Source: a bacterium (GTDB taxonomy: Bacteria; Patescibacteriota; Minisyncoccia; UBA6257; GWB1-50-10). From it: a stretch of 64,000 nucleotides of DNA. The number at the start of each line of letters is the position of its first letter. Position 1 is the first letter of the stretch. Positions 26,450-50,621 of the stretch are shown piece by piece. The stretch spans positions 98,752 through 162,751 of the forward strand of contig NZBZ01000004.1 of the NCBI GenBank assembly GCA_002686365.1, read 5' to 3'. Below the pieces are notes generated by a model. That model was not told the DNA's origin. It was given only the letters and a program-made list of their open reading frames with translations, and did no database searches. The position numbers were made by a program, and so were the translations under genes.

Positions 26450-26517
26450 TGTATTGCGGGGGTGTTTAGTAGGTATGGTTCTTGGCAGTTTTTTGTTATT
26501 TTACTATTTTACGATTT

Positions 26518-26557
26518 ACGATGCAGTTATGTGACGGTCGTGCTATAATTGCATCGT
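26518..26557 (+). promoter_or_regulatory. Hairpin element E (arms ACGATGCA/TGCATCGT, inner ACGGTCGTG) overlapping a TATAAT (26544-26549) and the GTG start of the downstream gene
   Basis: It forms a direct repeat pair with 27085-27124 (~85% identical). The -10-like TATAAT is 6 nt before the start codon, so the transcript is likely leaderless. Confidence 0.4.
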
Positions 26558-27056
26558 GGGTGTTGCAGATGACATTTTAACAATACTTTTTAGCTATTCC
26601 GCTGGGTATAAGCGTCTGCGTCAATTGACGTATGGGGGCTCTCCTTATCAATCGTCAGATTCTCGAAGGAAGATTAGAGATGAAACTCTTCGTTCTACAC
26701 TTTCTCGAATGAGGAAGAATAAGCTTGTGTCCCGCAAGGGGGATGAATGGGTTATCACCGCGAAAGGCAAGGCTTTTTATCGTCGTCGTAGGGAAAAGCG
26801 GAAACTTGAAGAGATTTCTGATGAATTGCGAAGTAGAAAGAAGTCTGTGATTATTGCGTTTGATGTTCCAGAAGAAAGGCGTGTTATTCGCGCATGGTTG
26901 CGGAGAGAATTAGTATTTTTAGGATTTGAGCCTATTCAGAAGAGTGTTTGGTTTGGTCCGGGTCCTTTGCCCGAGATATTTATTCAAGAATTGGGTGATA
27001 GAGATCTTTTGGGCTGTTTAAAATTTTTTAGGGCGACTGAGGATGATGTTGTTTAA
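26556..27056 (+). CDS. Winged-helix + Cas2/PaaX-like domain protein (166 aa), paralog 1
   Basis: The N-terminal wHTH region is ...TLSRMRKNKLVSRKGDEWVITAKGKAF.... The C-terminus VIIAFDVPEERRVIRAWLRRELVFLGFEPIQKSVWFGP matches the Cas2 N-terminal strand pattern (hhhYDI...RR...L...G.R.Q.SVF) and the PaaX middle domain. 57% identity-level paralog at 50061-50546. Confidence 0.5.
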   Translation: MGVADDILTILFSYSAGYKRLRQLTYGGSPYQSSDSRRKIRDETLRSTLSRMRKNKLVSRKGDEWVITAKGKAFYRRRREKRKLEEISDELRSRKKSVIIAFDVPEERRVIRAWLRRELVFLGFEPIQKSVWFGPGPLPEIFIQELGDRDLLGCLKFFRATEDDVV

Positions 27057-27084
27057 ATATTGTTTAGTATTGTTTAGTGATTTT

Positions 27085-27124
27085 ACGATGCACTTTTAGC
27101 ACGACCGTGCTATAGGTGCATCGT
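27085..27124 (+). repeat. Hairpin element E, downstream copy (ACGATGCAC...ACGACCGTG...GTGCATCGT)
   Basis: A 9-bp outer stem plus a 6-bp inner stem. Direct repeat of 26518-26557. Confidence 0.4.
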
Positions 27125-27699
27125 TGGTTGGTTTTTGATTGATAGATTAATGCTTGAGGGTTTTGGGGATTTGCAGATTCGCGGATTTGCGGATTTATCT
27201 CATTGTTTGTATATTGTTTGTACGTTCTTTGACCTATGGAATGGAGAAAATGCGCTATGTCGTTAAGAAAAGGCGTCAGGCGGCAGGTTCGCAAGAGGCG
27301 CGCTTCTAAGGCGCGCAGAGAGGCTCTGGTTAATGAGCAGTTCTTAAGTCTAGTCGGTCGAATTCCAGGAGAAGGAGAATTGGATCGTCTTGCTGCTCAG
27401 ATATAATTCGGAGATGCTCAGCCCTTGTCTGAGGCATTGGGCTTTGTGGGCGCCTATGTGGTGGCAACTGATGATCGTGATGTCTGGGTAAGTGTCCGCT
27501 TTAATAGCGCCACCAGGCAGATCTTCGGTGTGTCGCGGCCGCCCTCTAATGAGCATCTTGACAGCTTGCACAATCTCAGTGCCTGTGGGGAGTCTTCTGG
27601 TTCTGATTGGGTTTCGTCGTAGACGTCCCGCATGCCTTTATGGATGCGGGACGTTGTCATGTTTAGATAATGCTTATAACTTGAGAAGTTTGGATTTTT

Positions 27700-49894: not shown

Positions 49895-50019
49895 ACTCTA
49901 TGTGGTCGGGAATCGAAGGGAACCCCGACATTTATCGTCGGGGTGGGGGAGCGGGATTCCCGGCCTCCTATTGAGCGACGTGAGATTCCCCGGCCCGACA
50001 GCGATTTTTATAGATTTTT

Positions 50020-50054
50020 ATAACATTTCCTACGATCGTAGGAAATGTTATAAT
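50020..50054 (+). promoter_or_regulatory. 32-bp perfect palindrome ATAACATTTCCTACGA|TCGTAGGAAATGTTAT overlapping a TATAAT (50049-50054) 6 nt before the start codon: candidate autoregulated, leaderless promoter-operator
   Basis: Perfect 16-bp arms with the same ACGATCGT core as hairpins 26518, 27085 and 50556. Confidence 0.45.
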
Positions 50055-50060
50055 TTGTGT

Positions 50061-50546
50061 ATGGCTTTTAATAATGATTTGCTTACAGTTCTTTTTCGCA
50101 ACACGATGAGCTATAAACTGCTTAGGGAGTTTGCGCATAAACGTCGTCAAAAAGAAGTAAAGGATTCGGTTTTGCGAACAACTCTCTATCGTTTACGAAA
50201 ACAGGGCTTGGTTGTTCAAAAAGATGGAAAGTGGAGCATAACAAATCTAGGTAAGGACTTTTTGAAACGTAAGGAAAAGGCAAAGATTTGGGAGCATGGT
50301 TTGTACGACAAGTCTTTACGTGAGCGTGACAAGAATATGATTATTGCTTTTGATATTCCAGAATCTGAAAGGAGAAAACGGGATTGGTTAAGAGTTGAGC
50401 TGCGTCTTCTTGGCTTTGATCCTATTCAGAAGAGTGTTTGGTTTGGTCCATATCCGTTGCCTCGAGAGTTTATTCAGTCTTTGGGTAAATTGGAGCTTAT
50501 TACGTACTTGAAGTTTTTTCGTGCTCGGAAAGATGAGGTTGTTTGA
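50061..50546 (+). CDS. Winged-helix + Cas2/PaaX-like domain protein (161 aa), paralog 2
   Basis: MAFNNDLLTVLF...TLYRLRKQGLVVQKDGKWSITNLGKDF...MIIAFDIPESERRKRDWLRVELRLLGFDPIQKSVWFGPYPLP. It aligns end to end with 26556-27056. The ATG at 50061 is preferred; the track's 49890 start runs through repeat sequence. Confidence 0.5.
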   Translation: MAFNNDLLTVLFRNTMSYKLLREFAHKRRQKEVKDSVLRTTLYRLRKQGLVVQKDGKWSITNLGKDFLKRKEKAKIWEHGLYDKSLRERDKNMIIAFDIPESERRKRDWLRVELRLLGFDPIQKSVWFGPYPLPREFIQSLGKLELITYLKFFRARKDEVV

Positions 50547-50555
50547 CTTTTTGTA

Positions 50556-50583
50556 AACAAACCTTACGATCGTGAGGTTTGTT
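50556..50583 (+). repeat. Hairpin element E (AACAAACCT-TACGATCGTG-AGGTTTGTT) downstream of paralog 2
   Basis: Direct repeat of the upstream palindrome, with the ACGATCGT core. Confidence 0.4.
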
Positions 50584-50621
50584 ATATTTTTTTGAGTGTG
50601 ATTTTTTGGTATACTAAAAGC

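Follow-up and report, generated by a model that had tools for sequence, protein, structure and literature searches.

The repressor PaaX of E. coli recognizes an inverted repeat with wide spacing, TGATTC(N27)GAATCA, and its own promoter is repressed by steric hindrance (PMC9493321). PaaX responds to phenylacetyl-CoA and represses the paa operons. It is a protein of ~305-316 aa, in which a central PaaX_M domain of the Cas2-like type is accompanied by a ligand-binding PaaX_C domain; the family (TIGR02277) combines PF07848, PF20803 and PaaX_C. Cas2 itself forms homodimers, which in the Cas1-Cas2 complex are positioned along duplex DNA. To our knowledge, almost nothing has been reported on transcription control in Patescibacteria (CPR), where recognizable regulators are very few, and these bacteria cannot be grown alone.

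The window analyzed here, i.e., the whole 64-kb stretch of DNA, contains two genes whose products share the central PaaX_M domain with PaaX of E. coli W (PDB 8a39). These proteins, called mini-PaaX, most likely represent a so far undescribed family of self-repressing regulators. In the literature searched, no paper connects Patescibacteria, or the palindromes described below, with regulators of the PaaX_M or Cas2-like type.

Two paralogous mini-PaaX proteins

Gene A: 26556..27056, plus strand; mini-PaaX of 166 aa, GTG start (P0029, CL629_01505)
Gene B: 50061..50546, plus strand; mini-PaaX of 161 aa, ATG start (P0001, CL629_01630)

The initial annotation had described two paralogous genes for proteins of ~160 aa, combining a winged helix with a Cas2/PaaX-middle pattern, and both points hold. 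A full-length comparison of the proteins gives 48% identity (E 7e-49), and PaaX_M scores over the Pfam threshold in both. The N-terminal fold is a winged helix in the predicted structure; the PaaX-type winged helix profile (PF07848) is matched weakly in B (13.6 bits, cutoff 24.8) and not in A. The AF2 model of B has a pLDDT of 91.3. In Foldseek, PaaX 8a39 is the top two-domain match, with 130 aligned columns, and VapD is found among the structural neighbors of B. A Pfam search gave no match to PaaX_C in A or B, both of which end directly after the Cas2-like domain; the absence of this ligand-binding domain accounts for their length of ~160 aa, compared with that of PaaX. The full-length PaaX equivalog (TIGR02277) is matched by B alone, with a score of 29.3 for a cutoff of 264.55. 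Unlike for PaaX, no paa genes lie nearby, and none of the paa families is present among the best 25 of the 79 Pfam families matched in the window.

With Cas2 and VapD, mini-PaaX has in common the ferredoxin-like Cas2 fold and the Asp motif of beta-1. The FD(I/V)P motif aligns with YD(V/I)S of Cas2, and the Asp ending beta-1, already pointed out in the initial annotation, is invariant and aligned with the catalytic Asp of Cas2. Conservation within the protein is highest in the Cas2-like domain (mean column identity of 71%), and the strong conservation of its residues, including the Asp, could reflect a function beyond dimerization. One such function would be that of an active VapD/Cas2-type nuclease, a toxin-like or defense effector that the fused winged helix merely autoregulates. 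The invariant Asp, the conserved domain, the structural neighbor VapD and the matches of PADLOC Cas2 models to the protein (E 2e-6 to 1e-4) speak for this explanation, which we nevertheless regard as very improbable. In sequence, the proteins come closest to PaaX_M; this domain is the middle one of a repressor for which a nuclease role is unreported, and the Cas2 profiles remain under their cutoffs in both proteins (PF09827: 14.8 and 18.3 bits, cutoff 23.8; TIGR01573: 14.9 and 17.5, cutoff 24.5). Unlike Cas2 and VapD, mini-PaaX has a fused winged helix, and is accompanied neither by cas1, other cas genes or a CRISPR array nor by an antitoxin-like partner gene. As initially annotated, the 64-kb window contains no CRISPR-like array (tandem-repeat search), and Cas models gave no match among its 50 long ORFs (PADLOC). 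A defense or CRISPR context was rejected, as there is no array and no Cas or defense neighborhood; the neighbors are housekeeping genes. In addition, stable vertical inheritance and the many paralogs per reduced genome suit regulators better than toxins.

Palindromes and promoters of both genes

A-up palindrome: 26518..26557, no strand assigned; imperfect, proposed autoregulatory operator of gene A
TATAAT -10 box of gene A: 26545..26550, plus strand; within the A-up 3' arm, its end 5 nt from the GTG
A-down palindrome: 27085..27124, no strand assigned; 28 nt past the stop codon of gene A
B-up palindrome: 50018..50053, no strand assigned; 36 bp, perfect, proposed autoregulatory operator of gene B
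Extended -10 box of gene B, TGtTATAAT: 50046..50054, plus strand; within the B-up 3' arm, its end 6 nt from the ATG
B-down palindrome: 50556..50586 (or to 50583), no strand assigned; 9 nt past the stop codon of gene B

All four hairpins described initially, one upstream and one downstream of each gene, are present and share the core ACG(A/G)(T/C)CGT. This motif occurs four times in the 64-kb window, where 1.04 occurrences are expected, and all four are hairpin centers. The shorter CGRYCG has 17 sites, with at least 10 of 15 arm positions complementary in these four palindromes only (11 in A-up, 13 in A-down, 15 in B-up and 10 in B-down). The A-up core, ACGGTCGT (26534-26541), lies between outer boxes ACGATGCA / TGCATCGT, which are identical in A-down around the core ACGACCGT (27101-27108). 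The core ACGATCGT is found in B-up (50032-50039; outer boxes TTATAACA / TGTTATAA) and in B-down (50566-50573; outer boxes AACAAAC / GTTTGTT(ATA)). The outer arms of A-up are 13 nt long at 92%, the arms of A-down 19 nt at 89% and those of B-down 16 nt at 94%. B-up had been reported as a perfect palindrome of 32 bp at 50020-50051; it is perfect indeed, but 36 bp long. The upstream and downstream copies are repeats of each other, as had also been noticed, with a likeness of 79% over 47 nt for A and 71% over 31 nt for B.

In both upstream palindromes, the 3' arm contains the TATAAT box, in line with the initial annotation. Its position 5 nt before the GTG of gene A suggests a leaderless or near-leaderless mRNA, and the ortholog L018 has the same geometry of -10 box and start and the same palindrome layout. 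Among relatives, a -10-like hexamer is present in the gene-proximal arm of the upstream palindrome in 34/51 cases, compared with 11-17/51 for the other three arms, and in ~24 loci a distance of 25-30 nt separates the center of the upstream palindrome from the start codon. A -10 box next to the start is not special to the two genes: many genes of the window have one beside the start codon, without a Shine-Dalgarno motif. What is present at both genes is a palindrome overlapping the gene's own promoter and conserved alongside the gene.

Conservation and bipartite architecture of the palindrome pair

The mini-PaaX family comprises 1,628 clusters at 50% identity (E <= 1e-10). Relatives were found at 160 loci, every named one in Patescibacteria, and the paralogs, up to five per ~1-Mb genome, are divergent. 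In the GTDB loci, CGRYCG-cored palindromes are almost confined to pairs bracketing a mini-PaaX gene. A strict test identified a palindrome upstream in 41/68 and downstream in 40/68 of these loci, ~0.03 being expected per window of the test. In an independent metagenome set, a CGRYCG-centered palindrome is present upstream in 56/63 and downstream in 60/63 cases, with just three further palindromes in 143.6 kb of flanking DNA. The initial annotation had named findings that would refute it, and all these checks came out in its favor: the structure search gave the PaaX fold, the hairpins are conserved beside orthologs and paralogs, and hairpin-less paralogs are the exception. Two further contrasts with PaaX are the high number of paralogs in one genome, every one of them with its own site pair, and the second site 3' of the gene.

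The palindrome-gene-palindrome unit is conserved in hundreds of relatives and regardless of neighbor orientation; the strands of the previous and next genes (++ 21, -- 20, -+ 15, +- 7) show that the orientation of the unit is independent of both. A self-contained unit of this kind might be a mobile or selfish cassette, with the palindromes as recombination or transposition ends and the protein mobilizing or maintaining it. The arms surround a short symmetric core as in recombinase sites, and a pair of gene-specific palindromes of 30-40 nt bracketing a gene is the likeness to REP/RAYT (TnpA-REP) and lox/dif. Several divergent paralogs per genome and the location of both window genes near tRNA genes would also agree with mobility, although tRNA adjacency is neither general nor enriched among the loci. 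Such a cassette is nonetheless highly improbable. Unlike REP/RAYT or lox/dif, mini-PaaX has no HUH/Tyr transposase or recombinase domain, and Pfam and TIGRFAM profile searches revealed no recombinase, transposase or HUH signature in the A and B proteins. There are ~2 sites per gene, where REP sequences number hundreds, and orphan sites are few. In the window, A and B are surrounded by an AA_kinase gene, MscS, a tRNA and a receiver-domain gene. Orthologs from distant samples keep their chromosomal context: gene A and L018 have a common upstream AA_kinase gene and a common downstream tRNA-Ser(GGA), and lepA is the next gene in nine loci. No relatives were found in 2.9 million viral contigs. Furthermore, the upstream and downstream copies are non-identical, with differences that persist from one species to another (L005/L008); recombination is thus not homogenizing them. 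With synteny conserved and no viral copies, mobility is without support, and the hairpin-bounded cassette of the initial annotation stands as anatomy, the unit being conserved, but not as a mobile element.

The palindromes, 36-40 bp long in the window genes, are bipartite: a universal core is combined with a gene-specific outer box of 7 bp, which occupies positions 11-17, counted from the dyad, and has TGTTAAA as its family consensus; positions 5-10 are variable. This operator differs from that of PaaX in sequence and spacing, by its invariant CGATCG dyad core and by outer boxes ~20 bp apart. With ~38 bp, it has about twice the length of operators of the PadR, MarR and RosR types, and an extra cognate site is located past the gene. 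Symmetry at positions 11-17 is seen in 93-100 of 102 sites, compared with 29-66 in shuffles, with three or four pair types each. These positions differ from gene to gene; the two copies beside one gene agree in 41-48/51 cases of the genome set, and in the metagenome set in 35-40/40 at positions 11-16 and in 28/40 at position 17. Between ortholog pairs, both palindromes are 0.67-1.0 identical, synonymous third positions 0.27-0.82 and flanking intergenic DNA mostly 0.4-0.6. Both copies are under purifying selection, conserved above synonymous sites. Variants of the recognition helix, which corresponds to residues 37-44 in B, are found with different outer boxes (TLYLTLARLK with TGATATA, VLRNxLSKMKK with GGTTAYA, RS-type with TGCA), so the box appears to track the helix, an association confounded by shared ancestry. 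Gene-specific outer boxes that are present in both copies, purifying selection and this apparent tracking fit the self-repressing regulator put forward in the initial annotation.

Symmetry is maintained where the two copies of one gene differ: 85/144 such double changes are compensatory, a figure inflated by the fact that the sites had been selected for symmetry. Compensatory changes are not predicted by a pure half-site read-out and could reflect selection for hairpin or cruciform formation. The palindromes could then be mainly nucleic-acid hairpins, either DNA cruciforms or, downstream, a 3' stem-loop of the mRNA (a terminator or a stabilizer against exonuclease), and the Cas2-like (RRM/ferredoxin-fold) domain would read the folded structure and not duplex DNA. 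This explanation is judged unlikely. The four window sites do fold as DNA far better than shuffles (z of -3.9 for A-up, -6.9 for A-down, -8.0 for B-up and -4.8 for B-down). B-down is followed by ATATTTTTTT, looks terminator-like and was scored as such; T-rich runs follow both downstream palindromes of the window, and TTTTTTGTTTTTTT follows that of L018. Some downstream palindromes begin 0-4 nt past the stop codon and are therefore necessarily transcribed. On the other hand, the -10 box lies within the upstream copy, which can therefore not be transcribed whole from its own promoter. The mismatches show neither an excess of G:T wobble nor a strand bias (TG+GT 58, CA+AC 65), and selection at the RNA level was rejected on these grounds. 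A terminator needs neither a gene-specific outer box nor a CGATCG core common to the promoter site, and the ordinary terminators of this genome are GC-rich stems with A/T runs. At least four T follow 13/53 downstream and 8/54 upstream palindromes; a general terminator signature was thus rejected for the downstream sites.

A related proposal is that the Cas2-like domain recognizes, and perhaps nicks, a CGATCG-centered hairpin or cruciform, located either in DNA or where the protein's own mRNA ends 3'; the protein would be a free-standing Cas2/VapD relative with its own repeat pair. We find this distinctly unlikely. If true, the unit would be a selfish, insulating or post-transcriptionally self-controlled cassette, and Patescibacteria would contain thousands of orthogonal protein/repeat pairs.

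Downstream site and proposed autorepression

The next gene is co-directional in 27/48 loci and convergent in 21/48, and in the convergent loci the downstream palindrome is thus no operator for the neighbor. Its arms are -10-like in 12-17/51 only. With co-directional genes in no more than those 27 loci, a role as promoter or operator of the next gene was rejected, and the downstream palindrome does not, in general, serve as a promoter. Rfam gave no match for the ORF-poor region past A-down; a 56-aa ORF located there is without Pfam match and without conserved counterpart among the loci of relatives. Helical phasing of the site pairs, a signature of DNA looping, was also considered. The first 51 pairs gave a Rayleigh R of 0.30-0.39 at 10.5-10.6 bp (nominal p ~0.005), with an unstable phase; the signal was gone in 22 independent clusters, with R at 0.05 and p at 0.95, and is regarded as noise.

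The preferred explanation, which we consider likely, is that A and B are members of a large mini-PaaX family, specific to Patescibacteria, of dimeric autorepressors with paralog-specific cognate operators. Dimerization would take place via the Cas2-like domain, by analogy with Cas2 and PaaX, whereas autorepressors of the PadR, MarR and RosR types dimerize by helical extensions. The dimer would occupy the ~38-bp bipartite palindrome, its two recognition helices reading the paralog-specific outer boxes at positions 11-17. A conserved portion of the protein, possibly its Cas2-like dimer, may contact the invariant (A)CGATCG(T) core at the dyad. Given the overlap of the upstream site with the extended -10 box and with the predicted leaderless mRNA start, a bound protein should block RNA polymerase, which would result in negative autoregulation like that of PaaX at its own Px promoter. 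The same protein would bind the downstream cognate site, which would most likely serve the 3' end of the unit as a roadblock, terminator or insulator. Where the next gene is co-directional, as with the response-regulator gene that follows B and with lepA in its nine loci, the site may control this gene too. A point against the autorepressor model is that detectable sites flank the regulator's own gene only, which leaves it without an obvious target.

The downstream cognate site, present whatever the orientation of the neighbor, is of interest to specialists. The Cas2-like fold seems to be a dimerization module, possibly also a DNA-spacing one, of a minimal repressor, which bears on the relations between Cas2, VapD and PaaX. 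As each regulator carries its presumed binding site twice beside its own gene, the family would provide a natural library of orthogonal repressor/operator pairs. Their protein-DNA recognition code is directly testable with variants of the recognition helix and of the outer box, and the site pairs may offer a route to regulons in uncultured organisms.

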